DNA of 64,000 bases from Caldisericia bacterium (GTDB lineage: Bacteria > Caldisericota > Caldisericia > JAAYUI01). Below are positions 11,601-52,237 of this stretch, piece after piece. Numbering within the stretch: position 1 is the first letter of the stretch; the number at the start of each line of letters is the position of its first letter. The DNA lies in assembly GCA_040768585.1 (NCBI GenBank), contig JAXGMQ010000001.1, positions 1,159,299 to 1,223,298 of the forward strand, written 5' to 3'. Below the pieces are notes generated by a model that saw only the letters and a program-made list of their open reading frames with translations, did not search any database and was not told the DNA's origin. The position numbers and the translations under genes were made by a program.

Positions 11601-14600
11601 TGACCACGCGCTTCAGAATTCAAGACTCAACTACACAACAGGTGTTAATCCGCTCTACCCAATGCCATCACCAGCCCCGAGGATTCAGAGGTCTTACGAT
11701 CCAATCATCAGAGACTATGGCAGACAGCTCAGAAGTTACCCTGGCGGACAGACACATACCGGTAGGCTCACAGGTGGAGCGATTGGTAATGGTAACCGCT
11801 GGAATGCATACCCAGCAATCTGGGAAAACATGTACGTCAAACTTGGAACCGAGTTCTATCCACTCACCGACTATGGTATGTACTTCTTCCTGCTTAATGG
11901 TGACGGAAACCACATCGGTTGGCCAGGAATGAGAGACTCAGCTCAGGAGCCAAACCTCGCAGTAAGATATATGAGAATCAAGGGTCCGTTTATGAGACCT
12001 AAGTATTATTATGAGCCGTCGTTGAACTGCGTACTTGGTGGTTCAGACAGCCCGTGGTATGAGTACAATAATGTCCTTGGTCTTCCAATCTCCTATGACT
12101 ACTCAGGACAGATTGATGTTGACCCATCGAACTTCGGTGCTTACTGTCCAGGTGGCGGAGCTGACCTTTCGCAGATTGGTAACCCATCCTCATCGACAGA
12201 CAGCTTTACGTATAAGAATGCCAACACTTGGCTTACAAAATGGAAAGATCTCTACTACGGTGGATTCTGGCAGGTATCAAGATCCAACTTCAATGCCCCG
12301 GTCGCTGACCCAGTAACTCCTTGCTATCCATACCTCTGGGTATTCGACGAGATTATTCCTGTAAGCTCTGGTGACATCACGATTGAGCTCGAGCTTATGA
12401 ATGGCGTCAAGAAGGTATATCAGGATTGCTGTGTGGCCGAGCTTGAGGGAACTAAAGACGGAATCCCAGTGCATGGTCTCAAGATAGAGGGTGCCCCGCA
12501 GTACGTTACGGTGGATGATGACAACGTGTTCGAACTCACAGTAACCGAAGACACCGGCAAGGGCATGCTCAACAACGACGAGTGGCTCAACATCGAGTGC
12601 AATGATGCTGTCCTCTTCGCATGGCAGGATAGAGGTGTTGTCGATCCAGGATCAAAATACTGGCTTGGACCACTAGATGGTCAGATAACGATGCCACCAA
12701 TCTCATCAGACTTCTCGAATGTTGAGTATGCGTACGAGTTGGTCGCTGATGTTAACGATGACAATAAAGTCTCGTACGAGGATTGGGAGACTGAGATTGT
12801 CGGAACATATGACATGGCAACCAACACATGGCTTGGTGGTATGATTGACGCCAGGACATTCCAGAGAGAGAACGGTCAGTACAAAATCGAACTCACAAAG
12901 GAATGGGGAGCCCAGATTGATGTTGTTGGTATTGATATTGGCGGCGTCGATGAAAATGGAAGACCGCTTCTTCGTAATCACGTCGACCACATTGTTGATG
13001 AGAACGAGCTTGTTCCACTCAACATCACCGCCTACAAGTATGGCGACGACAATAATGACAGAGCCTTTACACCTCTCTACGACCAGGTTCTCTCAACAGG
13101 CTACTCGCACGAGGTATATCTCGCTGGACAGGTTACGATTGGTGTAGAACCAAAACGTGACCTCAGTGTGACCTATGGGCCAGAGCCGTTGACTGCTGGT
13201 GTCATTCCAGAGAAGCTAGGCGATCCACTTACACTCTACGTGACCGATTACAATGGTGAGCCAGTTAATTTGACGATGGGTATGGCTGATGCTCATGGTG
13301 ACTATGAGGTAATCGGCGAAAACATCTGGAGAAATCTGTTCAAAGACCCGCACCCAGATAATGAGTACTACTATGGCAATGGTGTAGTCCTTCCGCAGTA
13401 CTATTGGATGAGAACAGACCTTCATAACGATCCAGACTCGATAACGAATATCTGCAATACAGGTATGTACAACTCGTTCTTCCTTCCAATCAAGTTTGGT
13501 ATGGATGCAGAAAAGGGTGTTTACAGCTTCAGCGGATTTATTGCAAACGATAAGGGCGATTTTGAGATCTACGTTTACACGCCAGATCGCAGGCACTCAG
13601 GTGTCGTGACAGTCAAGGTCGTTAACCCAACTGTCACATATGAAATCGTCAACAAGGATGAAATAAACACTATCTTTGATGTGCCATCCACAACGGATGA
13701 CCCAGACTTTGTCATGACAGCCGGTGACAACAGAGCATACATCGTTACGGCGACATGCCGTAATGCTCAGGATGCTCTGCTCAAGGGCGTTGCGAAAGGC
13801 GTCTCTGTCTGTTCTGGCCAGGGTGAGGACATCGCGAGATTCACACCGTCAATGACTGTTCTTAATAACTTCTGGTATCAGGGTTACTACTACAACACGA
13901 TCGGCGTTGACTTCAACAATGATGGCGCACTTACATCACCATCCATAGCGCAATCTGAGTTTGCAGAAGTGAAACCAATTGCAGATGCGATCTACTATAA
14001 CACGCACATGACCAGATACACCGATGGAAGCTATGCTCTTTGGCTCTACACGGGCGCTGATTCATGGTATCCAGGACCATTGAACTATATGTGGTTCCTA
14101 GACCGAAGGAATGAGTCTCAGTTCCTTTCACCACCGAGATCGTTCGGACTTGGTGCAATCTACAACGACTTGTATCATGGCACGTATATGTTTGCCGACC
14201 TAAACGGTGACAACTCAATTTCATTCAGAGACTCGCTGTCACTTGACGAACAGGGAAGAACAACCTTCTATGTCTACACAGACGATGCATGTTATCTGAC
14301 GGGTCTTGTTGGATACAACGACTATTGTAACGTTTCGATGTACGCAGACGTTGCTGGATATCCATCCTACTATACCGAGTACGACCCGAATTACTCGAGG
14401 TACAGATACCCAAGAAACTTCGCTGATGGAGTGTATGCTCTTGATTGGGAAGCATGGGCAGACACGGAGCTTGAGATTGGCACACCAAGGATTGAGATTA
14501 TTGAGCCGCTTTCTGGTGAGGAGTGGCGCAAGGATCTCCTTGATGAGAACTATTATGATCTCGTTTACGGTGTTAAGAATCACATGCTTGTCAGAGTTTA

Positions 14601-16050
14601 CCCAGCCGATATGAGAGACCTTCCAATAGCTGAAGAAACAGTTATCGGTTACTCAGTTGCTAGGAAAAGCGGTACCGGCGCTGCTCCAGCGTTTGAGACG
14701 ACGGTTATGGCAAGACTTGTCGAAAGTGAAGTCGATCCGAGCGCAAGAGAAGCGAATCTCTATGTTGATCCAACAGGTACTGGCTCATACCAGGCCGGTC
14801 TGTATATGAGAAACGAGAGAAAGAATACGTTCAACCCAATGATTCTCCCAACATTCTCACAGAATCTTGCTCTCACTGTGTTTGATGTGGTAAAAGGAAT
14901 GGAGATAATTCCTGAGGTCGCAGGCGCTCTTAAGGTTGGACAAGAAACGACCCTTTCAATCAAGGTCGTAGTTGCTGGTGGAGCAAATGAACCACTCGAA
15001 GGAATTAGTGTAACTCTCGATGATGCAAACGGCGTTGTTGATTCAGTAACAGCAAAAACAAATGCCAAGGGTGTTGCTGAGTTCACAGTTACTCCAAAGA
15101 AAGCCGGAAGAATTGTTGTCAAGGCGACCTCCGATGTTTATGGCAAGGCATACAGCGCTGTCGGTGTTGAGGTCGAGGTCGTGCCGCCAATGCTCGTTGT
15201 CAACCCAGTCAAGTCAGTTACCAAGGAATCGAAGATTGAGATCACAGGTAAGACATCGATTGGCGTGGAAGTCGAGATAAACACTGAGAAGGTCAAGGTT
15301 GCGGACGATGGTACCTTCAAGCATAGCGTCAACCTGCAGGAGGGCTTCAATTCGATAGATGTTGAAGCTGTCAATTCGGTAGGAATGGCAACTAGTGTTG
15401 TTGTTAACGTAGTCAGAGACTCGACTCCGCCATCGATAATTCTTGACCAGAAGGACGTAGTCTTTGGTCCAACTATTACACTTACGGGTAAGGTTGAGCC
15501 GTACTCAGTTGTAACGGTCAACGGAGTCCCAGCAGAGGTTGTGTACGACAATTGGAGAGTTGAGCTTACAGACGTTGACAACGGAGCACTTGAAGTTGAG
15601 ATCAAGGCCACAGACCCCGCCGGAAATGAAAGCGAGCCATTCAAAGCGACACTCACAGTTGTCACAAAGAAAGAAATGGTTCTTCATGAAGGTTCAACCT
15701 CTGTCACAATCAATGGTGATGATCAGCGTGGACTCACGAGAGCCCCGTACGTTGATGGACTTAGTTTCATGGTTCCGGTGCAGGCGTTCTCCACTTTCTT
15801 TGGTAATGCTGGAGATCCAGTTGTGAATGGTGACGTTGCAACAGTGACAATCAACGGCATTTCCTTTGAGTTCACAAATGGCACAAAGCTCTACACCCAG
15901 GATGACACTGATTTTACAATGCCAAAAGAAGCGAAGCTTGAATTTGGCGTGATGTTTGTTGATGCTATTTATCTTGCCTCCACGCTTGGTCTTGAGACGA
16001 GCTGGAATGCAGGTAACAATGAGTTGAGAATATACGAGATTACGGACTGA
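5653..16050 (+). CDS. Giant secreted protein (3465 aa), paralog 2 of the tandem family. Signal peptide; N-terminal domain with repeated Ca-binding-like loops; conserved Cys-motif core; Ig-like repeats; CuAO-N1-like C-terminus.
   Basis: A single uninterrupted 10.4-kb ORF. An AAAGGAGAGGT RBS sits 7 nt upstream of the ATG. The N-terminus is hydrophobic (MRRTIVMLIAAAMISGIFTQLL...A-EVV). It shares GQVWFDPDGRFHD, NNTQGPY, YPGGQTH, VYQDCC, ECNDAVLFAWQDRG, AYKYGDDNNDR and LPQYYWMRTDLHN with the other giants. Confidence 0.88.
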   Translation: MRRTIVMLIAAAMISGIFTQLLPMQSVGAEVVQDGNQHATIILSNWHMVGHDEYGDPLSGGKSFPWQHEGESVDSYWGSDDYGMPNAVSAITTAGVARAARRQNYGMTTTPMLWTTVYLTIVADDGGSRPIIDEKGDLEGLGRWYVIMDSAGQVWFDPDGRFHDSRYLAQADPFSPYYMYIEDEDGNAFGACLENPTAKVDPSEMNNTQGPYQFSPTTESGEENPFYVEPCYFWIRPNLTKIVNAEAENTCDAYSNHTLRGESRAWQLGIASRPDYLAQNVMSPFGNVSDGLVREGEWDIGVSLLPFMPNEQYTDNYQGNGTAGTFDSTDYIYRNVNYPAGGPPYAVEPGDVRLTSVTVGIAPNTNTFLAGSVVQPSDLDVGEPLNAIPTNIRYAISEVGEAAAELEHRNLGALNPAGWSTVSTMGTTVLSLTDVSNLTAGSAIQIGPNDAGQSDICNVVAIINTAPAYNQYYTYLSGHCPGGYELSAYAYYVNGSFNPGDYIVYGRGATSEIFRLDWVNWYGYYPNYMGYCYAYSSYTGFDLDRPLYFNHAYDNLYNLYYSQDTITKIDQGVVLDCATLYDYEAGTPITILGYQPGDFIYRQLDPNEANVAIGDIRLSNVDGHRIDGFQMGQGAYEFDALVMNEILFADPNDPRYQGMVRNSDWHKSDFDFNIQSTVEEESVEFPYGACMPTYDISVESDFWQGERVWRTNSQGQWESEWQGVIPSVTACALRSPNDDVDDAHHRIAKQTVLGPYGDSFFIHTATIHNVQPDYREYLGIEIFCDNGYDNLSNPNPAGVGAVALDLNDNYMRGTVCEPYVGATSRAPDLDLNRDLVALDGSTDNPKFVDTDNLAPVPDGPGNYGCNEPIYFDMDDDGFVSPGDKRGSSVQMNAGATMDGIVLFFEVNSIVQQGDSDVGRILSRFRDPLTNEPVYKYYDNPHAISRLPSGVWEYGENIYWDHPEPPDFPGGDGRTDPGDIRLTDVNIGGTSYFCGETVGIGDVFALEYPVYMISTGKNGDYNYMDFQVLPFPTMDVKVDIDKPLKVEQTSNITIEVNPPPAPGESIFVALRETTIEPRMPMPAVQFYSMENVTGDWLTYECDGQVLDAGLCPWTPGGGYYHVALPWPFEFFGQTYTSVGVSYDGYIDMSDQYNYLSSIWLNYCWSPPPYQYNYGRLPANLPDTGRPPRIHSLLTWWDSDEVCWGDAIWPATGETVFVVTWRGENGGYYYYRRGERLEAQVVLFSNGQILIQYKQTECPYYWMYSYYGYDHYITGITNGSGVYYEWDPGAPCAFGMEANVLFTPGEIPAKAGVPKVNIAEDAKWMTQDNPVASFEFTPYRGTCLEDGTRKPMEINLYRDAGGLSEPVPRNPPPNTYLTYQEPSFSTRPPIPNGRVIAIGNPFGYLEGDWILIGNSTNSERRRIEQIHVGTEGASTEVLYQTYRSTQALPSYHIPVRSVKDFTIGNPVIVGHSHTGNQETHIIEGLSRGDVSPGEPSFWSTGIRYPYPQAGTNVTLLVNNASGFQIGDYIGYGYTNGWWNANPINNGRDIAKIIDIDYGANSLTLDVIHTYWYYYNYYVCTIEAVEVRDPLKFVHYGDATSPYGEAEPVFTTKFAFTLNRGLNYDHYFGEPVIGMQYFDPFWADNKWGRFDLDMYPSRQFAAVLPPDDVSPDLDSGYDCYWRGRFNIAPEEIVIDPERDCLHVLDTRFPNVLLNLYDADNPNDVNDPANIPISCPGGVSGVDQTIIANVNATGAGVKYLMTAGQSSPPRYIVQVNDDGTYEWWRWYEPLAATQIFGALDPNDWLYRWLDMDVLNFVNPATRSPLPVHDNTYELRLTDNDCSKGGGVCDPCNNGTLWPCLGDITINDAYGRFMGTISDPYSNYPNPQPLPANFGRIENFGIPCVIDRWTLGSDGGQIMFPVKPLKGGTLNIRVYTYQAVFDYNSSNIHAPGPYFTEDTSYGIDYCGYYQMKVIEKDADVNFIEFRMVDHALQNSRLNYTTGVNPLYPMPSPAPRIQRSYDPIIRDYGRQLRSYPGGQTHTGRLTGGAIGNGNRWNAYPAIWENMYVKLGTEFYPLTDYGMYFFLLNGDGNHIGWPGMRDSAQEPNLAVRYMRIKGPFMRPKYYYEPSLNCVLGGSDSPWYEYNNVLGLPISYDYSGQIDVDPSNFGAYCPGGGADLSQIGNPSSSTDSFTYKNANTWLTKWKDLYYGGFWQVSRSNFNAPVADPVTPCYPYLWVFDEIIPVSSGDITIELELMNGVKKVYQDCCVAELEGTKDGIPVHGLKIEGAPQYVTVDDDNVFELTVTEDTGKGMLNNDEWLNIECNDAVLFAWQDRGVVDPGSKYWLGPLDGQITMPPISSDFSNVEYAYELVADVNDDNKVSYEDWETEIVGTYDMATNTWLGGMIDARTFQRENGQYKIELTKEWGAQIDVVGIDIGGVDENGRPLLRNHVDHIVDENELVPLNITAYKYGDDNNDRAFTPLYDQVLSTGYSHEVYLAGQVTIGVEPKRDLSVTYGPEPLTAGVIPEKLGDPLTLYVTDYNGEPVNLTMGMADAHGDYEVIGENIWRNLFKDPHPDNEYYYGNGVVLPQYYWMRTDLHNDPDSITNICNTGMYNSFFLPIKFGMDAEKGVYSFSGFIANDKGDFEIYVYTPDRRHSGVVTVKVVNPTVTYEIVNKDEINTIFDVPSTTDDPDFVMTAGDNRAYIVTATCRNAQDALLKGVAKGVSVCSGQGEDIARFTPSMTVLNNFWYQGYYYNTIGVDFNNDGALTSPSIAQSEFAEVKPIADAIYYNTHMTRYTDGSYALWLYTGADSWYPGPLNYMWFLDRRNESQFLSPPRSFGLGAIYNDLYHGTYMFADLNGDNSISFRDSLSLDEQGRTTFYVYTDDACYLTGLVGYNDYCNVSMYADVAGYPSYYTEYDPNYSRYRYPRNFADGVYALDWEAWADTELEIGTPRIEIIEPLSGEEWRKDLLDENYYDLVYGVKNHMLVRVYPADMRDLPIAEETVIGYSVARKSGTGAAPAFETTVMARLVESEVDPSAREANLYVDPTGTGSYQAGLYMRNERKNTFNPMILPTFSQNLALTVFDVVKGMEIIPEVAGALKVGQETTLSIKVVVAGGANEPLEGISVTLDDANGVVDSVTAKTNAKGVAEFTVTPKKAGRIVVKATSDVYGKAYSAVGVEVEVVPPMLVVNPVKSVTKESKIEITGKTSIGVEVEINTEKVKVADDGTFKHSVNLQEGFNSIDVEAVNSVGMATSVVVNVVRDSTPPSIILDQKDVVFGPTITLTGKVEPYSVVTVNGVPAEVVYDNWRVELTDVDNGALEVEIKATDPAGNESEPFKATLTVVTKKEMVLHEGSTSVTINGDDQRGLTRAPYVDGLSFMVPVQAFSTFFGNAGDPVVNGDVATVTINGISFEFTNGTKLYTQDDTDFTMPKEAKLEFGVMFVDAIYLASTLGLETSWNAGNNELRIYEITD

Positions 16051-16073
16051 TAAGGGATATAAGGATAAGATTT

Positions 16074-16112
16074 CTCTCCCGGATACCTCTTTGTGTTGGT
16101 GTCCGGGAGAGC
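16074..16112 (+). terminator. Hairpin with a 10-bp stem downstream of giant paralog 2, with no U-tract.
   Basis: CTCTCCCGGA (16075-16084) pairs with TCCGGGAGAG (16103-16112), about 21 nt after the stop. It is preceded by ATTTCTCTC, and the same ATTTCTCTC lead-in occurs at 27001. Confidence 0.4.
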
Positions 16113-16124
16113 GAGAGACACATG

Positions 16125-16167
16125 ATTAGATTGATTTCGAAGCGATTAATGAGGTTGATTGAAGAGA
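16125..16167 (+). promoter_or_regulatory. Conserved GATTGATT upstream element pair, before giant paralog 3.
   Basis: GATTAGATTGATTT at 16125-16138 and GAGGTTGATTGAAGAG at 16152-16167. This is the same motif family seen upstream of paralogs 2 and 4. Confidence 0.4.
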
Positions 16168-16222
16168 ACACTAAAGAGGCTAAGTTTGGCCTTAGTGGCT
16201 ATAGTGCAAAAGGAGAGGTCAG

Positions 16223-19066
16223 ATGAAGAAACTACTTAGCTTGCTCGTAGTGGCAGTAATGGCCCTTGGAATGTTTGCTACCCAAATAGCGCCATTCAAT
16301 ACTGTCCAGGCGCAGGACGAAGAGCTTCGCGATGTTACCATGATTGTTCCGGTATTTCATCGCGCTGGCTATGACCGTTATGGTCGTCCCCTTCGCAACG
16401 GCAGGTACACGGAGTATGATGGTGTAAACGTCAACACAAAAACCGGAAGATTCACGCTTGACCCCGGTTTGCCGGCTGGCACTGCACCGACATATGACGC
16501 AACTGACGGTGTTTTATTTCCGTGGCAATATCCTGGTGATGATATGTGGGGCAGAGCTGGATATCATATGCCAGACTGCGTCAAGGCCATTGATGAACCG
16601 GGCAACGGAAGAATAAATGTCGCTGTCACAGAGCTTTCCGATGATGACTGGAATGTTACACCATACCTCTACACAGAAGTTTTCCTTACAGTGTTAGCGG
16701 AGGGTGGCGAGAGTCAGCTCTTTGACAAGAGATACATTGTCATGGACAACATGGGTCAGGTTTGGATTGACCCAGACGGTAGATTCCACGATTGCCGATA
16801 CTGGGAACCAGCAAATCCGGCATCCACTTATTACAGGAGTGCAACTGTCCTTTCAGGAGACAACACTGCTCAGTGGAATGATTGCCGAACAAACCCGAAG
16901 ATGATTGTTGATCCAAGTGGCGACAATAACACCCAGGGACCATACATTTTCAACCCGCAGTACAATTCAGCCCGTGAAGATTACCCAGCCCCAGTGTACC
17001 ACGAGAATGTTCACTACTGGTGGTATGATGAGGACAAGGGAATCGACAGGGTTTGGAAACTCGGTATTGCAAACCAGACCGACTATCTGAGAGAGGGTGC
17101 CTTCTCACCAGACGGCGTTCACATATCATCAGGTATCGTCGGTGGTCCAGATGGTTCGACGCCAGGTGCATACTACCCAGGAAAGCCGGTTCTTTGGAAC
17201 ACAGTGATGTCAGACTCGGTGACACAGAGATGGTGTCCACACGATTCCAACATCATTGCCTATGACTGGGACTACAACCTCCCACTTGCCAACTTTACAA
17301 ATCAGGAATTCTGTATCGACGTCAATGGAAACAATCTGTACGACTTTGGCGAGCCGATATTCCTTGATGCGGACAGCAACGGTATGTTTGATGACCTCGA
17401 CCTGAGACTTATTGCATGGACGATTGTTTGGGGTGGAACGTCATTCAACTTCAGAAAAGGCACTCTCGTTGGTATCAACGATGAGGACTATCTCTGGTTC
17501 CTTGCAAATGGCTTTGGTGTCATCGACTTGAGCACACTTACTGACATTAAGCACACGTCAACCTCTGGCGCGTCGCTCTATGATCAGATATATCGAGATG
17601 TTGATGGCGACGACTTGGTTGGTCCAAATGATGTCAGAATCACCAATATCAATGGTCGTATTGATGGAATGGGAATCACCTGTGGTGGCTTCTTCATGGG
17701 CGATGCTCTTATCATGCTCGAAGTACTCAAGACATCCTGCTCATATAAGTACAATGTGCATGTGCAGTCAGACCTGTGGCAGGTTATGCAGGAGGATACA
17801 TACGAGCAGATCGAGATGTATCCATCAATGACAGCTGCTGCATTCCACTCTCCAAACGGCGATATCGTCTCGATGGCTCAGCTTGTAAATAAGGCGACAG
17901 CCCTCGATGATGATGGCAACACTTTCTACATGCCAACAACGACCTTCTACAATGTTGCACTTCTGTACAGAGAGTTTGTCGGTCTCCAGCTCTTCCTCGA
18001 CAATGGTATCGACAACAACCTTGCTGCTGGTGGTGAGTGCTATCAACTTTCCCTCGCCGACGACCACGTAAACTTTGAATCAGGTGAGCTCTACATCGGA
18101 TGTCAGGATGTTGAGACAGCCATGGATTATGATTTTGTTCTCACCGAGTTCTCTTCCGACTACCTCTACTTTGAAACCTCGTACGACATGACACCGGGCG
18201 CTTTCCCAACCCCAGTTCCAGATACCCTTAGATATGGTTGCGGTGAACCGATTTACAAAGACCTCAACAAGAAGCCACTCAATCCAGTCCTTCCGCTTCA
18301 GCCAGACCCAGAAGAGAATGACTACAACCCGGGCGTTGTAAACGTTGGCGACCAGAGAATGCTCGAAGTAACCGTTTACACCGAGGGTGTTCAGGGTTCA
18401 GCTGGAACAAAACATACATATCCAGCAGGTTCAATCGTTACAGATGGTGACCTCGACGCAGGCAGAATTCTTATCATGCTTGAGCCAGGTCTTGCGTACT
18501 ACGATGAGCCACAGGGCTGCAACGAACCAAACTCCATGTATGACATGGGTGAGTTGATTTATTTCGACCCAGCGCTTGCTGCCGGCACAAGAGCAACTCA
18601 TATGCTCTATGTTGACAATGGTGGTGGTATCGAGAGATTCGACCCAACAGAACCAAGTGACCTCGGTGGTATGAGATGGAATAGCTCAGTTCATGGTGGC
18701 GCAACTCAGGGTCAGTACAACGGCTATGGCGCATATGGTCAGAGCGGTTGGATGGGAGCGGAGCAGGCCTCGCAGTACTGGTTCTACCAGCAGTGCGGTG
18801 GTCTTGGTTCACCATACGACTACTCAAGCTACCCATATCTCTTCAATGTTGGCCCAACCTACTCCTATAACTACAGCAACTCCTATCCATGGGCAAACTA
18901 TATCTATAACAACACCTATCACACAAACTGCGGTGACCTTCTTGCGCTTCGCTGTCAGCAGTTCATGGGTGACTGGCGCTTAAGGCTCTATGAAGACAGT
19001 GACATGGAGTCGTATTACCAATATTCTTCCCAGTATATTCCAGGTAGCCCATACACATACATTTAG
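16223..19066 (+). CDS. Giant secreted protein paralog 3, N-terminal 947-aa segment. It is interrupted by a frameshift and continues in the ORF starting at 18990.
   Basis: An AAAGGAGAGGT RBS precedes the ATG. Signal peptide MKKLLSLLVVAVMALGMFATQIAPFNTVQAQDE. N-terminal domain motifs HRAGYDRYGRPL, GQVWIDPDGRFHDCRY and NNTQGPY match paralogs 2 and 4. The frame ends at 19066 while homology continues in another frame. Confidence 0.72.
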   Translation: MKKLLSLLVVAVMALGMFATQIAPFNTVQAQDEELRDVTMIVPVFHRAGYDRYGRPLRNGRYTEYDGVNVNTKTGRFTLDPGLPAGTAPTYDATDGVLFPWQYPGDDMWGRAGYHMPDCVKAIDEPGNGRINVAVTELSDDDWNVTPYLYTEVFLTVLAEGGESQLFDKRYIVMDNMGQVWIDPDGRFHDCRYWEPANPASTYYRSATVLSGDNTAQWNDCRTNPKMIVDPSGDNNTQGPYIFNPQYNSAREDYPAPVYHENVHYWWYDEDKGIDRVWKLGIANQTDYLREGAFSPDGVHISSGIVGGPDGSTPGAYYPGKPVLWNTVMSDSVTQRWCPHDSNIIAYDWDYNLPLANFTNQEFCIDVNGNNLYDFGEPIFLDADSNGMFDDLDLRLIAWTIVWGGTSFNFRKGTLVGINDEDYLWFLANGFGVIDLSTLTDIKHTSTSGASLYDQIYRDVDGDDLVGPNDVRITNINGRIDGMGITCGGFFMGDALIMLEVLKTSCSYKYNVHVQSDLWQVMQEDTYEQIEMYPSMTAAAFHSPNGDIVSMAQLVNKATALDDDGNTFYMPTTTFYNVALLYREFVGLQLFLDNGIDNNLAAGGECYQLSLADDHVNFESGELYIGCQDVETAMDYDFVLTEFSSDYLYFETSYDMTPGAFPTPVPDTLRYGCGEPIYKDLNKKPLNPVLPLQPDPEENDYNPGVVNVGDQRMLEVTVYTEGVQGSAGTKHTYPAGSIVTDGDLDAGRILIMLEPGLAYYDEPQGCNEPNSMYDMGELIYFDPALAAGTRATHMLYVDNGGGIERFDPTEPSDLGGMRWNSSVHGGATQGQYNGYGAYGQSGWMGAEQASQYWFYQQCGGLGSPYDYSSYPYLFNVGPTYSYNYSNSYPWANYIYNNTYHTNCGDLLALRCQQFMGDWRLRLYEDSDMESYYQYSSQYIPGSPYTYI

Positions 19067-22000
19067 TTATAATGGCTACCTCTCTTACTTATCCTCAGCG
19101 CTTGTTTGGTATCGTGGTCCAGACACAGATGGCAGAGATGTTTGTACAGATCCATATTGGACAAACTATGCCTTCAACTACCAGCTTCTCTGCGAGGACT
19201 ACAGAAGATATACTTCGTACGAGAAGTATGTAGGTATGGGCTCAGTTCTTATGGATCATTCTGGAAATGGATATGGTCAGCAGTACTACTACAGCCAGAA
19301 TAACAGGTCGTACTACGGACTTCACAGTGCTTCTAACCGATGCAGGATGCATTTCTTCCGCTGGGAGTACATGCCTCACCCAGAAAACGGTGGACCGTAC
19401 TCTCGTGCTATTCCGATCGCTTACTTTGATCCACCATCATCTGGTGACCTTCTTGCCTTTAATACTCTCTATGATGTGAGAACCACTGTCTTTGGTGGAC
19501 AGTGGAATGTCGCGATGTCACCTGACATCTGGAATGGCGACATCACAGTCAACCTTGTTGGAGGAAACACGTTTGGTTCGGTTGGTTTCTCGCATGGTCA
19601 ATACTACAACTACTACCATAACTACTACGGTGTTGATGCATACTTCGACAATGCTGAAGCATACATAATCGAGGTTGTTCCAAGTGCTGGTGACAGAAGA
19701 CGTCTCACGCTTGGCGGTCACCATGTTGGTTTGAACAAGCATGTCTACAGAAAAGACGATGTTAACTACTCAACATCGAGTGCGAGCGCTTCTGCACTTA
19801 CTCCATTCAGCCACTACTACCCATGCGGATCGAAACTTGCCGCTGGTGAGCTTTATGACATCGAATCCGTTGTCTCAATGGTCACGATGGGCAAATGTGG
19901 TGATCCACGATTCATGGATATCCCAGTGCTTCCTGGCGAAGTTGACCTCAAGGTCTCAATAGATGGAAACCCTGTATCGGAAGAAGATGAGTTCCACCTT
20001 AAGGTAGAGCAGACATCAGACATCCAGCTCTCAGTTGATCCACCACCACAGCCAGGCGAGAAGTACGTCGTCAGAATGAGTGGCGTCTTCCAGGAAGGCT
20101 ATCCGGCACGTGAAGCCTACACCGACTATATCGAATCCAGAGAGAGCAACACATTCTCGGAGTTCTGCGAGGGTGAAGTCGAGTTTGACAAGGAAAACTT
20201 TAACGGCTCCCCATACCTAGATGACACATATACACAGGAGTTTGCACTGCCGTGGGACTTCCCGCTTTACAACAGGATAATCCCTGCCGGTACGACTTTG
20301 TATGTTGGCACAAACGGTCAGATCGTATTCGAGAGAAACTATGCCGGTTACATTCCAAGTACCTATGGTTGGTTCCATAGATATGGTTATCCAGACTATG
20401 CGATACTTGCTTGTGGCGATGACCTCGAGCTCTACGAAGCACCAAGCTATGGTCGTACAAACTACAATCTCCATATGTACTACTGCCAGCCAACACCTGA
20501 CTCCGTAAGGATCAGATGGGAAACCCAGATATATCCAGCTAATGAAAATGGGCCAGCAACCGTTAACTTCTACATCACTCTTTATCAGGATGGAACCATT
20601 AGATTCACTTATGGTGACATGTATGATACCCGAGGTAGCTATAGTACAGTTGTTTCTGGTATCAGTGGTGACATCTCAGAGGGTGAATACTACTATACCA
20701 TGTATCACAACATGGTAATGAACTCCCTCGCCTATGCCGATGATGTTGTTCTCACCCGTTTTGAGTTCCCACCAGACGAGGGAAGACCATCGGGCGGAAC
20801 AATCGATTCAGACTATATGATTGGCAGCACCACTGAAGCACCGCACAGCAATGAGATCGGTGGAGCACACTATAAGACAGTTGAGATCACTCCAGAGAAC
20901 CCAGTTCAGCATATTCAGTACACCCCGTACAGAGGTTCCGTCCAGGAAGATGGTTCTTGCGATCCAATCAAAGCTGAGGTATTCCTGGAGCGTGGTGGAG
21001 TTTCGTATCCAGTTCCGATGGATTCAGTACTCTCTGGCGAGAGGGTCGAAAGAGATGTCGAAGACTATGATGAACTCAACCTCTACGATTACAACATCTA
21101 CGATCCATACTGGGTTGTTAGGCCTTGGGTGCAGAAGATGTATGAAGGTCGTCATATGGGCGACCACACACCAAGACCAATCCCATCAACGGCTGGTATA
21201 CCAACTGCAAATTGCGCGCTCAATAACCAGTATGATTGCTATGGCATATTTGAGCTGATGGTTGAGCCAGAAGAACTCAGACTTGAGTTCTCAGATGCAA
21301 GCAGAACCTGCATCTCCCCGGTTGACCAGAGATTCCCGAACCTTATCCTCAAGGTCTACGATGGCGACAATCCAATTGATGTAAACGATCCAGCTGATAT
21401 CCCGATTTCCACTGTTGGAATGCAGCCGGGTGTCAGAGGCAAGATTGTTGCCAATGTTAACGCTTCTGGTGCTGGAATTAAGTACCTCTGCACAGCAGTA
21501 GGTAAGAGGACCGGTGATGTGGACGTTAGGTACATCATCCAGGTTAATACCGATGGTACATACACCTTCTGGCGTATGTACGAGCCAGCAACAGACAGAC
21601 CGGGCGCGGCGTTGGGTGTTCTTGACCCAACCGACTGGCTGTACTCAAACAGATATCCATACAACAACGTCTATGGCGAGACAAACAGGTCTTATAACCA
21701 GTCAAGATTGCCATGGACAGATACAGACGGCTGGTTGTCGGCAATCACTGGTGATTCAACCATTACCACAGAGCTTGAAGATTACGATTGCTCATTCGAC
21801 CATTCAATCTGCAGAGATGTTTGTAGACCAACGAATGATGGTTTCCCGAACCTTGGATCCGTGACATACAACGACAGAATCGGAAGATTCAACGGTTCGT
21901 ACTACGACAACGATTTATTCTTCAGCCAGAGAACAGGTGGAGCGCCGTTTGGTGTCATCGAGACGTTCGGTGTGCCAACCATGATCACAAACTGGGATAA

Positions 22001-25000
22001 CAATTCAGAGGGTGGAGAGGTATACGTTCCAATTCAGCCAAGAGACACAGATACCCCACTACAAATTAGAGTCTACATCAATGATGCAGTGTTTGACTAT
22101 AACTCTGCAATTTCGGAGTGGTCATTTGACAACACACATCCGACATATCACCCACCATACTTTGTCTATGATGACTCACCAGGCATCGACTACTGTGGTA
22201 TAATCACAGTTCCAGTGCAGCCAGCTGACAAGCTCAACTTCACAGAGTTCATGCTTACTGACCACGGACTTCAGTTCTCAGAAGCTGATTACACGGCGGG
22301 TGATAGCGCGCTTGCGGAGATGGATAGACCAGCTCCACAGCTGAGACACTGGTACAACCCAATTTGCTACAACTACAAGAAGGACATGAGAGTATATCCG
22401 GGTGGACAGACCCACCTCGCAAGGGCAATCGGCTCTGAGCGTGAGGGTGGTTTCAATGCCTACCCAGCTGTGAGCAAGGAATACTTCGGAAAACTTGGTA
22501 CTGAGTTCTATCCACTCACCGACTATGGTCTTTATTTCACAATGGTCTCCAATACTGACGTAAGATCTTGGAGTCTCTGGGATTCCTACACATTTGACCC
22601 ATATGGAACCCTTGAGCGTTCATATCCAGAGATGCAGTTCAGAATCATTGACACAATCGAGGTTTCAGGACCATTCATGGTGCCGTTCCAGTGGCGCAGA
22701 CCAAACATAATCGGTTCTGGAAGCAACCAGATTGGTTACATCGAGAGAGCTCTCAGAAGTGAGTACGAGTATAATGGTGTTGAGAATGTACCGATCAGAT
22801 ATGACACATCCGGTTATATCAAGATCGACCAGTCCAACTCACAGTATTATGAAATCAGAAGCAATGCCGATTTCACTGACGTTGTAAGTCCAGGATTCAC
22901 CTATGATACACACGAGTACATCGATAACCCACTTCCGTCAAATGGAACGCTTAACAAGAACAGATCACTCGTTTATCACAGTAGTAACCCATATATTCTA
23001 CATATGCCTCGCGGATATGTTGGCGACAATGCCTACGTCTTTGCTATCGACGAACTCATCCCAATGGGTCCTGGTAACATCGAGATTAAGGTAACGCTCA
23101 GAGACGGAACAATTAAGATATTCCAGGATTGCTGCATCAAACCAATCTCAGATGGTATTGATGTGCATGGACTTGACATCAAGCTTGACAACGAGGACAT
23201 CAATGAACGCGGCGGAATCTTGGTTGACCAGGACGTTGTGCTTCAAGCAAGAGTTTACGAGAATGAGAAAGCCGATGTCGTCGACGGAACCGAGTGGGAA
23301 TACGCAGAGTGCAATGATGCTCTTGTTTACGCCTGGCAGGATAGAGGTATCTACGACCCAGCACTTAGAGTGCATGTGGGTGCCGGTGATGGCTGGGTAA
23401 CAAAACCACCGAAAAACTCCGATATGTACAGACAAGCAGTTCAGTATCTTACGGATGACGACTTTGATGGTGATGGTAAGGTCAGCTTCAGTTCACACGA
23501 GACAGAGGTTATCGGATCTTATGACATCGTAACAAACACTTGGTCAGGTGCTTTTGTTGACGCTAGAACATATCAGAGACAGGATGGGTACTATGTCCTT
23601 CCACTCACTGAGGAGAAGGGTTCATACGTTGATACCGTTGGATTTGACTTCGGCGGATTTGGACCGACTGGTAAGCCACTCCCACCAGGAATCAGAGACC
23701 ACGTTGTTGGTTGGGATGAGACACTGCCGGTTTGGATTGTCGCCTACAAATATGGTGATGACAGCAACGACAGGACTTTCAGACCGCTGTTTGACTCGAT
23801 CGAGACTAATGTTCCATCAATGAGCCACGAGGTTTACCTCGCTGGCACAAAGGATCTCGAGGTCTTCCCACAAGTTGACCTTCAGATGGAGTACGGTCCA
23901 GAGCCACTTACCGCTGGTATGACACCTGAGCTTCAGAACCCAGAGACACCGCTCTTCTTCAGATTCACGGATGACCAGGGCAACCCAGTTGACTTCACGC
24001 AAGGAGTCGAGGACGCATGGGGTAACAGGCTTGTTAAAGACGAGGATATCTACAAGCATTGTTTCATTGACCCACATCCAGATGATGAATACTACTACGG
24101 AATTGGAGCCGTTCTTCCACAGTACTACTGGTTGAGGACTGACCTCCACAACTTCGATGGCACACCGATCTGCAACTCATTGTTGTTCTCGGATCCAGAT
24201 GAGCCATTCAAGCCAATCAGATTCGATATTGAGAAGGACGTAAACGGTAATGTTACAGGTAGATACAACTTCACAGGTTTCTGTGCAAACGATGCCGGCG
24301 AGTTTGAGGTTTATGCCTACACGCCGGACAGAAAACACAGCGCAGTTGCGACAGTGAAGGTTGCTCAGCCTGAGATCAAGTACGCCGTTAAGAATTTCGA
24401 GACGGGTCAGACGTTTGATGATGTTGACTTTGTCATGACAGCCAATGATGGTAGACGCTATGTGATAACAGCGACGTGCTGGGATGCTCAGGGTTCTCTT
24501 ATCAAGGGCACGGCGAAAGAAGTTTCGGTCTGCTCCGGTACAGGTTCTGATACGGCCAGATTCACTCCATACATCACAAGACCACAGAACTTTAATTGGA
24601 CTAGAGGTTCGAGCAATGCTGGATCACACTATGGAGTTCCGGGATATGGACAGGGATATGACCCATTCTACTCGTTCTATATTTACTTCCTCATCGATGA
24701 GGGTGATAGATTCTATCCATTTATGGGTGTAGATCTCACAAATGACGGTGATATCGACCCAATGAGAACAGAAACTTCAGAGTTGCACAGATACACTGCA
24801 ATGAAGCCAATGATTCAGTCCTACTACGGAATCTACGACACTTGGAGATATAGCAACTGGAGATCACCATGGGTGCACTACAACACAACAAATACACGTT
24901 ATGACGATATGACGTACAATGTGATGCACGCTTGGGATCTTCCACCAGCCAATGATGGTTGGGGTTGGGGAGCAATCTATAACCACCCATACGCAGGCGG

Positions 25001-26975
25001 TTATATCTTTACAGACTTCAATGTGGACGGAATCCTGACGTTCGAAGATTCACTGTCGTTCGATCAGAATGGTAAGGCAAGCTTCCACTTCTGGGCTGAT
25101 GATATTTGTGAGGTCGGTGGTCTTGTCGGTAATAACCATTACAGCAATGACAGCCAGTTTGCAGACCTCTATGGATACCCATCATGGTATGATGAGAAGT
25201 CACCAAACTACATGTATGAGAGATTCTACACATATAGAGATTGGTACGGCGACTGGCATGGTACTAGGGACTACACATTCATGCTTGACTGGGAGGCAAT
25301 TCCGAACAGAAACGTTGCCGTCAAAGCTCCTGAGGTCAAGATCTTCAACCCAGAGAACGGCGAAGAGATGTCGAAAGATATCTTCGATCCTGAAGCCTAT
25401 GATCTTACGTATGCAGTTAGAAACCACATGATCGTTAGGGTTTACCCAGCTGATAGACGCGATGCGAAGGTCAAAACTGGTGGCTCTTTCTTCATGAATG
25501 ACTACAGAGACTGGGCAACCACCTACTATGCGAACGAGTATGAATCATTAATCGTAGGAAGACTCACCGAGTCGACAGTTGATCCTGAGGCAGTAGAGAC
25601 AATGATTTACTTCACTCCGACAGGCACAGGCGAGAACACGAGTTCATTGCTTTATCTCAGAGAGTTCGACTGGAACGACAGAGCAAGTGAAACAAACGGT
25701 TTCGGTGGAATCACATTCGAGACATACATGAGGGTTGCCGATGTGGTTAGATTTGATTCCTGCAGGGGTTTGACTGTTAAAGCCGAACCACTCAACGAGG
25801 TTCTCAGACTTGGTCAGCCAGACACGATTGTTGTTACTGTCACCGAGACAGGCAGCGGATTCCCGATCGAGGGCGCAACTGTCGCTCTTAAGTCGGAGAA
25901 TGGCAACATCGAGATGGAGTCAACAACTGACAACATCGGTCAGGCATACTTTAACGATGTCAAACCTGAGGATATGTCGAAGTTTGTTATTACAGCATCG
26001 ACAGACGAGTATGTGAATGGCACAGATGTTCTTTACGTTGATGTTGACCTTTCACCACCATCAATTGATGTTGATGACTTCGAGGCACTCACCAAGAATT
26101 CAACAGTGAATCTCACTGGTACGGTTACAAAGGGTTCAAAGCTCAAAGTCGGTACGAAGGACGCGAATGTTGAAGCAGATGGTAAGTGGAAGGTTCAGAT
26201 ACAGCTTGTTGAGGACGAGAACCTCATTCCACTACTTGCAACAGGTCCAAACGGTGTACAGCAGTCACTAACACTCAGGATTGTCCTCGACACAACTGAA
26301 CCAGCGCTTCTCATGCCAGAAGAGTCGAGTCTTGATTTCTTCGATATCTCAGGCGATAGCGGAGAGATTTGGCTCACGGGCAGAGTCTCACCAGACGCAG
26401 TTGAAGTAGAGGTCACAATCGACCAGGGTGGGGAGAGAATCCCGGTTAGCGCAACAATCGTCAACGATGTGTGGCGCACAGACAAGTTTGAAGTCGAGAC
26501 AGGCGTTGAGTTCACAGTCCAGGTAGAGGCAACAGATGCAGCTGGAAACGTCAAAAAGTCCGATGTGGTTCCGTACTTTATTGCCAAGGTCACAAAGATT
26601 GAACTTACCGTTGGTAACTCAATCGCTATGGTCAATGGCAAGCCAGTGACTGAAGCTATCCAGCCACCAGTGCTTAACGCCAATGGCGTGATGCTCGTGC
26701 CACTAAGGCAGCTTGCGGACGCATTTGGTATCGCAGTTGCCGCGACTGGCAACAGTCTGACTATCACGGTTGATGGAAAGACAGCGACCTGCACAGTAGG
26801 TACTAACGGTGCGACAGTCGACGGAAATACCTTCACAATGTCGACAGCTCCTGAGAGCATTGTCACTGTGGTCATGGTACCGCTTGACTTCGTACACGAA
26901 GTACTCAAACTCACTGGAAAGAATATCGAACTCGTTAAGACAGCTATTGGTGTAACAATCATTATCAGTGATTGA
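18990..26975 (+). CDS. Giant secreted protein paralog 3, C-terminal 2661-aa segment. Same gene as 16223..19066 after a ±1 frameshift; the combined product is about 3.58k aa.
   Basis: The start of this ORF (SYNGYLSYLSSALVWY) aligns with paralog 2 at about aa 1140 (SYDGYIDMSDQYNYLSSIWLNY). That places it mid-gene rather than at a true start, and there is no RBS. The family core follows (VLPGEVDLKVSIDG...VEQTSDIQLSVDPPPQPGE, YPGGQTH, IFQDCC, ECNDALVYAWQDRG, AYKYGDDSNDR, LPQYYWLRTDLHN), with a CuAO-N1-like C-terminus. Confidence 0.72.
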   Translation: MKTVTWSRITNILPSIFQVAHTHTFSYNGYLSYLSSALVWYRGPDTDGRDVCTDPYWTNYAFNYQLLCEDYRRYTSYEKYVGMGSVLMDHSGNGYGQQYYYSQNNRSYYGLHSASNRCRMHFFRWEYMPHPENGGPYSRAIPIAYFDPPSSGDLLAFNTLYDVRTTVFGGQWNVAMSPDIWNGDITVNLVGGNTFGSVGFSHGQYYNYYHNYYGVDAYFDNAEAYIIEVVPSAGDRRRLTLGGHHVGLNKHVYRKDDVNYSTSSASASALTPFSHYYPCGSKLAAGELYDIESVVSMVTMGKCGDPRFMDIPVLPGEVDLKVSIDGNPVSEEDEFHLKVEQTSDIQLSVDPPPQPGEKYVVRMSGVFQEGYPAREAYTDYIESRESNTFSEFCEGEVEFDKENFNGSPYLDDTYTQEFALPWDFPLYNRIIPAGTTLYVGTNGQIVFERNYAGYIPSTYGWFHRYGYPDYAILACGDDLELYEAPSYGRTNYNLHMYYCQPTPDSVRIRWETQIYPANENGPATVNFYITLYQDGTIRFTYGDMYDTRGSYSTVVSGISGDISEGEYYYTMYHNMVMNSLAYADDVVLTRFEFPPDEGRPSGGTIDSDYMIGSTTEAPHSNEIGGAHYKTVEITPENPVQHIQYTPYRGSVQEDGSCDPIKAEVFLERGGVSYPVPMDSVLSGERVERDVEDYDELNLYDYNIYDPYWVVRPWVQKMYEGRHMGDHTPRPIPSTAGIPTANCALNNQYDCYGIFELMVEPEELRLEFSDASRTCISPVDQRFPNLILKVYDGDNPIDVNDPADIPISTVGMQPGVRGKIVANVNASGAGIKYLCTAVGKRTGDVDVRYIIQVNTDGTYTFWRMYEPATDRPGAALGVLDPTDWLYSNRYPYNNVYGETNRSYNQSRLPWTDTDGWLSAITGDSTITTELEDYDCSFDHSICRDVCRPTNDGFPNLGSVTYNDRIGRFNGSYYDNDLFFSQRTGGAPFGVIETFGVPTMITNWDNNSEGGEVYVPIQPRDTDTPLQIRVYINDAVFDYNSAISEWSFDNTHPTYHPPYFVYDDSPGIDYCGIITVPVQPADKLNFTEFMLTDHGLQFSEADYTAGDSALAEMDRPAPQLRHWYNPICYNYKKDMRVYPGGQTHLARAIGSEREGGFNAYPAVSKEYFGKLGTEFYPLTDYGLYFTMVSNTDVRSWSLWDSYTFDPYGTLERSYPEMQFRIIDTIEVSGPFMVPFQWRRPNIIGSGSNQIGYIERALRSEYEYNGVENVPIRYDTSGYIKIDQSNSQYYEIRSNADFTDVVSPGFTYDTHEYIDNPLPSNGTLNKNRSLVYHSSNPYILHMPRGYVGDNAYVFAIDELIPMGPGNIEIKVTLRDGTIKIFQDCCIKPISDGIDVHGLDIKLDNEDINERGGILVDQDVVLQARVYENEKADVVDGTEWEYAECNDALVYAWQDRGIYDPALRVHVGAGDGWVTKPPKNSDMYRQAVQYLTDDDFDGDGKVSFSSHETEVIGSYDIVTNTWSGAFVDARTYQRQDGYYVLPLTEEKGSYVDTVGFDFGGFGPTGKPLPPGIRDHVVGWDETLPVWIVAYKYGDDSNDRTFRPLFDSIETNVPSMSHEVYLAGTKDLEVFPQVDLQMEYGPEPLTAGMTPELQNPETPLFFRFTDDQGNPVDFTQGVEDAWGNRLVKDEDIYKHCFIDPHPDDEYYYGIGAVLPQYYWLRTDLHNFDGTPICNSLLFSDPDEPFKPIRFDIEKDVNGNVTGRYNFTGFCANDAGEFEVYAYTPDRKHSAVATVKVAQPEIKYAVKNFETGQTFDDVDFVMTANDGRRYVITATCWDAQGSLIKGTAKEVSVCSGTGSDTARFTPYITRPQNFNWTRGSSNAGSHYGVPGYGQGYDPFYSFYIYFLIDEGDRFYPFMGVDLTNDGDIDPMRTETSELHRYTAMKPMIQSYYGIYDTWRYSNWRSPWVHYNTTNTRYDDMTYNVMHAWDLPPANDGWGWGAIYNHPYAGGYIFTDFNVDGILTFEDSLSFDQNGKASFHFWADDICEVGGLVGNNHYSNDSQFADLYGYPSWYDEKSPNYMYERFYTYRDWYGDWHGTRDYTFMLDWEAIPNRNVAVKAPEVKIFNPENGEEMSKDIFDPEAYDLTYAVRNHMIVRVYPADRRDAKVKTGGSFFMNDYRDWATTYYANEYESLIVGRLTESTVDPEAVETMIYFTPTGTGENTSSLLYLREFDWNDRASETNGFGGITFETYMRVADVVRFDSCRGLTVKAEPLNEVLRLGQPDTIVVTVTETGSGFPIEGATVALKSENGNIEMESTTDNIGQAYFNDVKPEDMSKFVITASTDEYVNGTDVLYVDVDLSPPSIDVDDFEALTKNSTVNLTGTVTKGSKLKVGTKDANVEADGKWKVQIQLVEDENLIPLLATGPNGVQQSLTLRIVLDTTEPALLMPEESSLDFFDISGDSGEIWLTGRVSPDAVEVEVTIDQGGERIPVSATIVNDVWRTDKFEVETGVEFTVQVEATDAAGNVKKSDVVPYFIAKVTKIELTVGNSIAMVNGKPVTEAIQPPVLNANGVMLVPLRQLADAFGIAVAATGNSLTITVDGKTATCTVGTNGATVDGNTFTMSTAPESIVTVVMVPLDFVHEVLKLTGKNIELVKTAIGVTIIISD

Positions 26976-39283: not shown

Positions 39284-39408
39284 TTATCCACATTATTTAT
39301 CCTATTTATTGTATTGTCAATCCTCTATTTCTCAGCCTTTTTTGCAATTCTCTAATAATTTCATTAAAATGGTCTGATACTACTTGGTGAACCAGGGGTG
39401 GTGGTTGG

Positions 39409-40044: not shown

Positions 40045-40064
40045 TACAGAGAGAGACAGGGAAT

Positions 40065-44290: not shown

Positions 44291-44294
44291 GATT

Positions 44295-50546: not shown

Positions 50547-52094
50547 CTACTTGGCTAAATCCGGATTTGGAAACAACACCAACACCTCGCCCTGTTTTGT
50601 TTTTGGGTATTCATCGGGGCTTTTCCAGATAACCTTTGCCCCCAATAACTCACAGACAAATCGAAGCGGCAGCATCATTGTGTTGTCGACGATAACAGGT
50701 GTTGTCTCAAACCTTCCATCGATTCTAACCTCAATTCCGTCCACTTTTGCTGTTGGTTTGTTCGCCCAAAGCTCGATTTTCTTTGGCATAATCGGCTCTA
50801 GATTGTTGAAGTTGTATGTGGGGGTCACAAATGTTGCTTTCTTCTCCTTTGAGTTCCAGGTCAGAGTGCAGCCGACTTTTTCTCCTGACACAGTATCAAC
50901 TCTTGTGAAGATGTTGTCCATTAGCCACTTTATCGGAACCATGAGCCTGTCGCCAATAACCTGAGCGTATGGCTTGATTGGGATGGTGTTCTCATCGACA
51001 TAGGCAAAGTATTTCTTGACCGGTATTCTTGTCATGACGGTTTCGATATCAGTCCTCTTTGTGGCATTCTCGATTTTCCAGACGAGTTTCAGGGGTTCTT
51101 TGTCATATACGCTTGTGAATTTGTAGACCGTGTCTGTGCCAATGTCAGACACCCAGACAAACCCCTGGCTGTCAACCTCAACAGAGCTGAGCTTCGCCTC
51201 TGGCGGGAAGACATTCTGTCCTGGGTTTTCACCCGTGTTGCCAATCTCACCGATTTTTGTGAAATTACCGTCAAGTACGGTGACGATGTTGGTGCCTGAG
51301 TCTGCCACGTAGTAATAGCCAAACTCATTGCTTGTTCTGTCTGCCGAGATGTCTGTTGGACTATCAAACACAAGTGAATCGTTGCTCTCTGTCGATATGA
51401 CAAATTCCCCATCACGCCTGTATTTTAAGATTCTCTTGTTACCAGTGTCGGCAACAAGCACATATCCTCGTACATCAACTACGACCCCCTCTGGACTGTT
51501 GAAATGCTCATTATCATTACCCGCTGGCGCGCTGGAGTGTTCGTATCCTTCTGGTGTGGTGAATCTTGGAATAGCATAATCGTTACAGTCTTCGACACTT
51601 TTATCAAAATCAATTGCATACGGATCATATCTGACGAGTTTGTTCCCTGCTCTGTCTATGACATATGCCCCAATATCGTCTGCTATTCCGATTTTTGCCA
51701 TGGCATATGGTTCAAGAAGTTCGTGCCTTTCCGGGTCACCTGTGAAGGTGTGGTGCGTCCTGTTTGGGTTCATGTTGACGATTGTGCCAAGGGTTGCATC
51801 AACAATACCTATTGTGTTTCCAACTCTGCAGGTGCTTATGTCCACCGGAGATACCAGTTTCAAATCTTTACAGTAGATAATCTCCTTTATGAAATCCCCC
51901 AAGTAGTGCCCATACATATCAAACTTATGAACCTTTGAGTTAATCGGGTCTGCAACAAAGATGTAGTACCCAAAGTCACAGGCAATCCCCATCTTCTTGT
52001 GCTGTGGCGCGCTCCTTGAAACAGACACGGAAAAACCAAACACCAAGATGGCAGCTAAAAACACCGACACATAAAATCTAATATTCCTCTTCAT
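50547..52094 (-). CDS. Secreted NHL-repeat/beta-propeller protein with a C-terminal CuAO-N1-like module.
   Basis: The likely start is at MKRNIRFYVSVFLAAILVFGFSVSVSRSA, after a GAGGGGGTG RBS; the longer ORF start at 52220 lacks one. NHL-like repeats are recognisable (YVADSGTNIVTVLDG, VWVSDIGTDTVYKF, YVLVADTGNKRILKY). The C-terminus MMLPLRFVCELLGAKVIWK carries the CuAO-N1-like motif. Confidence 0.7.
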   Translation of the reverse strand: MKRNIRFYVSVFLAAILVFGFSVSVSRSAPQHKKMGIACDFGYYIFVADPINSKVHKFDMYGHYLGDFIKEIIYCKDLKLVSPVDISTCRVGNTIGIVDATLGTIVNMNPNRTHHTFTGDPERHELLEPYAMAKIGIADDIGAYVIDRAGNKLVRYDPYAIDFDKSVEDCNDYAIPRFTTPEGYEHSSAPAGNDNEHFNSPEGVVVDVRGYVLVADTGNKRILKYRRDGEFVISTESNDSLVFDSPTDISADRTSNEFGYYYVADSGTNIVTVLDGNFTKIGEIGNTGENPGQNVFPPEAKLSSVEVDSQGFVWVSDIGTDTVYKFTSVYDKEPLKLVWKIENATKRTDIETVMTRIPVKKYFAYVDENTIPIKPYAQVIGDRLMVPIKWLMDNIFTRVDTVSGEKVGCTLTWNSKEKKATFVTPTYNFNNLEPIMPKKIELWANKPTAKVDGIEVRIDGRFETTPVIVDNTMMLPLRFVCELLGAKVIWKSPDEYPKTKQGEVLVLFPNPDLAK

Positions 52095-52237
52095 ACCTAG
52101 CACCCCCTCTCTTGAAGATATTCTAAGACAGCAGGGCAACAGTAGACAAACAAGATTGGCGTCAGATTCCGTTAAATATGAATCAATCTGTGACATGAAA
52201 ACTGGAAAACTTTCCAACAATGACTAAAATCATCCTC

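Follow-up and report, generated by a model that had tools for sequence, protein, structure and literature searches.

Here, we describe a 64,000-nucleotide stretch of DNA (the window) from the Caldisericia bacterium genome GCA_040768585.1 (contig JAXGMQ010000001.1, positions 1,159,299 to 1,223,298 of the forward strand), in which four giant paralogous genes, p1 to p4, stand in tandem on one strand. Among the four, only paralog 3 occupies two open reading frames (ORFs), and it is this split that we set out to interpret. We find that giant paralog 3 is one gene of ~3584 codons, encoding a secreted surface protein anchored by a stalk domain, and that its frame is broken by a net change of -2 nt in a single codon. 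The break lies in a hypervariable insert that is peculiar to this paralog. The principal features, in window coordinates, are as follows.

Ending at 5443, + strand: p1, whose start lies beyond the left window edge
5653-16050, + strand: p2
16212..16218, + strand: Shine-Dalgarno sequence GGAGAGG of paralog 3 (upstream sequences of all ORFs compared; AAAGGAGAGG..ATG also stands before p2 and p4)
16223-26975, + strand: p3, in two ORFs
16223..19066, + strand: p3a, the N-terminal 947 codons with the signal peptide, ending ...PYTYI-TAG (ORF list, translation)
18569..19820, + strand: Tyr/Asn/Ser-rich insert of ~418 aa, in paralog 3 only
18990..19064, + strand: out-of-frame 5' extension of the second ORF, MKTVTWSRITNILPSIFQVAHTHTF, homologous to nothing; its ATG has no paralog-type ribosome-binding site (RBS)
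19065..26975, + strand: p3b, the remaining ~2636 codons, in frame 0, with the C-terminal Ig-like and Cu_amine_oxidN1 domains (ORF list, Pfam)
27149-35971, + strand: p4

Paralog 3 and its intact relatives

The N-termini of p2, p3 and p4, which lie within the window, are signal-peptide-like and stand behind a conserved AAAGGAGAGG..ATG RBS, and all four proteins end in Ig-like/Glucodextran_B domains followed by Cu_amine_oxidN1 (named 'stalk domain' at NCBI). The initial annotation was correct in placing the two ORFs of paralog 3 at 16223..19066 and 18990..26975, the first closing with YTYI* and the second reading ...HTHTFSYNGYLSYLSSALVWY, and in noting a frame-0 TAA at 18981-18983. Its statement that the two halves are collinear with the single genes p2 and p4 is borne out by blastp (p3a plus p3b). 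The sequence of p3a is identical to P0048, and that of p3b, read from M19236, to P0008; no contig other than the source contig carries these exact proteins.

The second ORF overlaps the first out of frame by 77 nt. A comparison of the sequences upstream of all window ORFs found no AAAGGAGAGG RBS before its ATG at 18990, and p3b is therefore not an independent gene; nor is its N-terminus signal-peptide-like on inspection of the translation. Read together, p3a, which has a strong RBS, and the frame that continues through 19065-26975 make one gene of 3583-3585 aa; three further alleles from this species (98% identical DNA) have it whole. An identical p4 was found on 20 public contigs, and two of these, among the matches listed, show the gene upstream of it: in L004 as a single 3583-aa ORF, and in L006 as uninterrupted over the junction. 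A further 14 similar places are reported. Full-length proteins are represented by P0044 and P0046 (3583 aa) and P0049 (3585 aa). Of the alleles, which we letter A to D with C being that of the window, the fourth, D (P0038/L017, partial), also reads across the break site, and distant orthologs with 35-54% identity (P0001, P0006 and P0007) cross it in one frame. The last ~2270 residues of p3b are identical to those of the intact alleles.

Paralog 3 is thus a single gene, because intact alleles of it exist in other assemblies, and the comparison with related genomes that had been proposed at the outset finds it in one frame in its relatives. As in a frameshift pseudogene, intact homologs are collinear across the break, the length of the indel is not a multiple of 3, and the downstream segment has no translation or export signals of its own.

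Look-ups for an exact protein returned no record for p3a, for p2, or for p3b read from ATG 18990 or from ATG 19236. DNA-pattern scans of metagenome_contigs and genome_contigs returned nothing, and they also missed a 20-mer that is present in the Joint Genome Institute (JGI) contig L007, so these negatives are uninformative on close relatives. A word-index protein search is equally uninformative on close relatives, having given two distant matches only and missed the gene's own cluster.

The lesion

Codon alignment with the intact alleles places the lesion between 19064 and 19065. The frame switch first reported is therefore real, and its position was correct to 2-3 nt. Only one codon is affected, being reduced to an orphan T, with a net loss of 2 nt (equivalent to +1); of the ±1 frameshift originally proposed, the change of frame stands and the size does not. 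The codons of the window read ...TAC ACA TAC ATT T-- AGT TAT AAT..., as against ...ATA TGG ACA TAT AAC... in allele A and ...ATT TAC ACA TAT AAC... in allele B. At the protein level, every relative has Y or W in the affected column. The alignment fits an ancestral ATT-TAY/TGG-AGT that would have lost two bases to become ATT-T-AGT. The features at the site are the following.

19042..19081, + strand: perfect 8-nt inverted repeat, AGGTAGCC (19042-49) and GGCTACCT (19074-81), flanking the deletion site on both sides and peculiar to the window allele
19050..19062, + strand: CATACACATACAT, encoding (P)YTYI, the supposed slippage tract, in two copies and equally long in alleles A, B and C
19064, + strand: orphan T, remnant of an aromatic codon (codon and protein alignments; TGG in A, TAC in B and D, Y/W in distant orthologs)
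19064..19066, + strand: premature TAG in frame 2, made by the deletion

With the loss of 2 nt, a TAG comes into frame at 19064-66. Readthrough would be unable to rescue the gene, because a second frame-2 stop, TAA at 19070-72, follows two codons on. TAG also serves as the normal stop of other window genes, and on these two grounds we reject stop readthrough or an alternative genetic code. Further disabling lesions elsewhere in the gene, which the initial annotation would have taken as the sign of a simple pseudogene, were not seen: the gene has no second lesion, and there is no amino-acid decay in the 2270 downstream residues. Over 19058-19070 the short form present in the window is ATTTAGTTAT, and forms two bases longer would be ATTTAYAGTTAT or ATTTGGAGTTAT; the states are distinguished by ACATTTAGTTATAATGG versus ACATTTACAGTTATAATGG, ACATTTATAGTTATAATGG and ACATTTGGAGTTATAATGG.

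A frameshift was correctly inferred, but from local evidence that was coincidental. Residues flanking the junction had been matched to paralog 2, but the p2 motif in question, FEFFGQTYTSVGVSYDGYIDMS (p2 ~1131), aligns collinearly by tblastn to ~20166-20250, where its true paralog 3 counterpart, WDFPLYNRIIPAGTTLYVGTNGQIVF, lies ~1.1 kb downstream of the junction. The 8-nt inverted repeat could be the trace of a template-switch mutation or a coincidence; it is a post hoc observation, and bracketing of this kind applies to 1.7% of window positions. A scan for promoters and terminators gave counts equal to the shuffle expectation.

A hypervariable insert around the break

The ~418-aa insert has no detectable homology in p1, p2 or p4 (E>2) and forms the core of an allelic hypervariable region. 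When six other loci were compared with the window, all differences fell within ~16600-20200, and over ~20300-54290 assemblies from different reactors are 99.97-100% identical, with no indels save one 1-nt deletion in assembly L016. The hypervariable region exists in at least four alleles, which form mosaic tracts (L004, L005, L006, L007, L008 and L017). In the core (18500-19700), allele pairs have a synonymous divergence (dS) of 0.8-1.9 and a ratio of nonsynonymous to synonymous divergence (dN/dS) of 0.02-0.16, from which it follows that the alleles are old, functional and recombining, and not the product of recent hypermutation. Loop lengths vary from allele to allele by whole codons. Variable residues are concentrated in those loops of the insert that are rich in Tyr, Asn, Ser and Trp, and the frameshift sits in one of the most variable of these.

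Allele C of the window is itself a mosaic, being identical to allele B over 18000-18900 and having 1 mismatch to allele A over 19200-19400. It is a fine-scale patchwork of B-like and A-like sequence, with the switch at ~18940-19100, and it has sequence of its own in the loops rich in Tyr, Asn and Ser. The codon GCG, one of those that look 'private' to it, recurs in allele D.

A target of a diversity-generating retroelement was considered and rejected. There is no reverse transcriptase among the window ORFs, the region occurs in the window once only, and in the absence of both a reverse transcriptase and a template repeat from the window the region is not such a target; in addition, the differences are of all substitution types and mostly synonymous. 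A profile search of the PDB gave no match to the insert, and p3a has no Pfam match. The predicted model of the allele A insert has a pLDDT (predicted local distance difference test) score of 31.5, which is too low for use.

Short-read assemblies tend to break in this region. L005 has an N-gap at 18745-19346, while L007 ends at 19050, L008 at 19488 and L017 at 19542; the contig end of L009 also falls inside paralog 3, at 21120. From these five breaks within paralog 3, it follows that its alleles co-occur in many samples. Synonymous divergence is saturated in a 1.2-kb stretch of paralog 3 between genomes that are >99.9% identical over tens of kb. It is probable that balancing or diversifying selection acts on the insert domain at the cell surface. 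As biology, the hypervariable insert is more noteworthy than the frameshift.

Mutation, polishing error and other explanations

In light of paralog 3 being one gene with a 2-nt lesion, is the deletion present in the cells or only in the consensus? Three options had been offered at the outset; pseudogenisation and an assembly or basecalling indel both remain live, while a slippage switch is unsupported. We judge the most likely explanation, at about even odds, to be a null or truncation allele that is real, specific to the strain and of very recent origin. Under such an allele, two bases would have been lost from a single Tyr/Trp codon in a hypervariable loop, giving the TAG at 19064-66, by a one-off small deletion with 1-nt microhomology and not by repeat slippage; nothing points to the deletion being reversible or regulated. 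The 947-aa N-terminal fragment would presumably still be exported, though without its C-terminal anchor, and the 2636-codon remainder, having neither an RBS nor a signal peptide, would be neither made nor exported. Paralog 3 would then have lost its function or survive only as a soluble N-terminal fragment, and the mutation would have to be very recent, because the gene has no second lesion.

Several findings support a deletion that is present in the cells and not merely in the consensus, as we infer. Outside the variable region, ~48 kb of the window shows no indels against independent Illumina assemblies, with all homopolymers of 7-8 nt in the compared stretch included, and the remaining ~58 kb of coding sequence has open frames and no other frameshift. 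The loss is of 2 nt in a non-homopolymer context, and allele-specific codons are coherent on both flanks. Moreover, frameshift variants of surface genes also occur in an Illumina-only assembly of the species: the JGI assembly L016 (3300009775; 15575-17121) lacks one T of a TTT run at window position 50848, a deletion that splits an NHL/Cu_amine_oxidN1 gene (50547..52220, minus strand) into 93 + 422 aa.

Other findings weigh against a real mutation. The source assembly very probably used error-prone long reads (Nanopore R9.4.1 with Illumina), and the lesion falls within the stretch where short-read assemblies of the species break, which is where polishing is most likely to fail. The split is absent from every other assembly compared, and this uniqueness, together with the lack of a second lesion and of downstream amino-acid decay, fits an artefact as well as it does a very recent mutation. 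The split resembles known strain-specific frameshift null alleles of large surface or adhesin genes in that one small indel breaks the frame of a very long secreted-protein gene with no other damage, with sister strains intact and a downstream part without start signals of its own. It differs from these in being known from a MAG (metagenome-assembled genome) consensus, and in having no second lesion.

A serious contender, although we hold it somewhat short of an even chance, is a residual error of hybrid assembly or polishing, in which the cells carry an intact allele C (ATT-TAY/TGG-AGT) and two bases were lost in the Nanopore consensus and not restored. Short reads from co-occurring alleles would map poorly in the hypervariable loop, leaving the bases unrestored. 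The source is very probably the Caldisericia bin.236, a co-assembly of several samples with metaFlye (nano-raw, R9.4.1) and Unicycler. That bin (o__JAAYUI01) is one circular contig of 2,171,894 bp, from a study in which time-series samples sequenced with Nanopore R9.4.1 and Illumina were co-assembled by a Unicycler or metaFlye-plus-Unicycler pipeline (Microbiome 2024;12:121, PMC11225162). A polishing error is also consistent with the fragmentation of other assemblies in the same region, with strain heterogeneity of at least 4 alleles, with the fine-scale B-like/A-like mosaic of the window allele at ~18940-19100, with the absence of decay elsewhere in the gene, and with a split that is seen in one record only. 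Against it stand the same ~48 kb without indel discrepancies and ~58 kb of coding sequence without another frameshift, and the Illumina-level accuracy of the flanks (18000-18900 equal to allele B; 19200-19400 with 1 mismatch to A). The loss of 2 nt outside a homopolymer is not the usual residual error of R9.4.1 reads, and a local failure of polishing would give several errors where one is seen. As an instance of the indel errors of long-read and hybrid assemblies, the case is typical in its data type (Nanopore R9.4.1 plus Illumina MAG) and in its strain-variable location, and atypical in being the only frameshift in 64 kb, without indel discrepancies in the ~48 kb compared, and a 2-nt non-homopolymer loss. 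A chimeric de Bruijn path is an unlikely cause: switches between alleles at shared k-mers keep register, and the loop has bases absent from alleles A, B and D.

The extreme form of such errors is seen in a related Caldisericia MAG, L010 (GCA_041391325.1, JAWKOF010000001.1), which looks like an unpolished long-read assembly. Its giant genes homologous to those of the window are shattered into dozens of ORFs of 50-400 aa. The distant ortholog P0001 itself ends out of frame (...PMWHKTCCWRNL vs YPCGSKLAAGEL).

Everything besides a real null allele and an artefact is, taken together, improbable. Very little can be said for a phase-variation-like on/off switch, operating by slipped-strand mispairing in the ACAT/CATACA tract, beyond the fact that the target is a surface-protein gene and that a short tandem repeat adjoins the lesion. 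The initial annotation had put the shift inside that tract and called it a classic slippage site, neither of which holds. The tract is (ACAT)x2 or (CATACA)x2 only, its length does not vary among alleles A, B and C, and the two-base gap is just 3' of it. Two-copy 4-mer repeats occur in the window at chance frequency (190 observed vs 192 expected from shuffles), Tandem Repeats Finder found no array in 18500-19600, and near the junction there is no repeat of at least 4 copies and no homopolymer of at least 7 nt; the sole 4-copy repeat within the gene is AGAGAGAG at 20139, and the gene as a whole contains neither a long simple-sequence repeat nor a long homopolymer. Slippage phase variation is thus unsupported, because the tract is two-copy, length-invariant and no commoner than chance. 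Contingency loci, such as those of surface genes in Haemophilus and Neisseria, have tetra- or pentanucleotide tracts in many copies and of variable length. Paralog 3 is like them in being a surface-protein gene that loses its frame near a short repeat, but its tract has two copies and does not vary, and the indel lies outside it. Neither a hypermutable tract (a homopolymer of ~7 nt or more, or several units of 2-7 nt) nor length variation between alleles A, B and C was found.

It is highly improbable that a programmed +1 ribosomal frameshift at AUU-UAG-U yields the full-length protein minus one residue. The model for such an event is prfB, in which the shift occurs at CUU-UGA-C with an upstream Shine-Dalgarno sequence. 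The paralog 3 site resembles it in that a stop comes directly after an NUU codon, and a ribosome slipping +1 from AUU would be back in the correct frame. However, relatives do not share the site (alleles A, B and D and the orthologs P0001, P0006 and P0007 are all single-frame), and there is no Shine-Dalgarno-like element 3 nt upstream or within 10 nt, the nearest AGG being ~16 nt away. The RNA structure is not unusual (fold z = 0.06). Re-pairing of tRNA-Ile on UUU is poor, which also counts against the shift and sets the site apart from prfB. Programmed frameshifting is hence unsupported: the relatives encode the protein without any shift, and neither a Shine-Dalgarno sequence nor an RNA structure is present to stimulate one. 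We set aside as equally implausible a true two-gene architecture, in which gene fission has left both parts functional: both ORFs are long and open, but the second lacks a paralog-type RBS and a signal peptide and overlaps the first out of frame by 77 nt, and the break interrupts a domain that every relative has in one piece.

Returning to a genuine null allele, we raise a broader possibility, which we consider doubtful and offer only tentatively. The 2-nt deletion may be real and represent one state of population-level variation around the recombining Tyr-rich insert, whose deeply diverged alleles in near-identical genomes would be expected of a recognition target of phages or predators, with null alleles as selected escape variants; the inverted repeat could then mark a template switch that yielded both the unique loop and the frameshift.

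Whichever of the two leading explanations applies, the split paralog 3 is a giant gene with an ordinary frameshift, found in a hybrid MAG. The stakes of the frameshift itself are small: on it depends the annotation of a single giant surface protein out of four, either as a pseudogene or as an intact protein of 3584 aa. The genome concerned is the only closed one of this uncultured Caldisericia order, and the case illustrates the need for read-level checks of hybrid MAGs at strain-variable loci.

Downstream of the giant genes, the region 37724-47477 holds a dockerin-bearing beta-propeller protein (minus strand), an ECF-type (extracytoplasmic function) sigma factor whose stop overlaps a 761-aa ORF with no Pfam match, and two further Glucodextran_B/Cu_amine_oxidN1 proteins. 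From its gene content, this region looks like a cell-envelope gene island.

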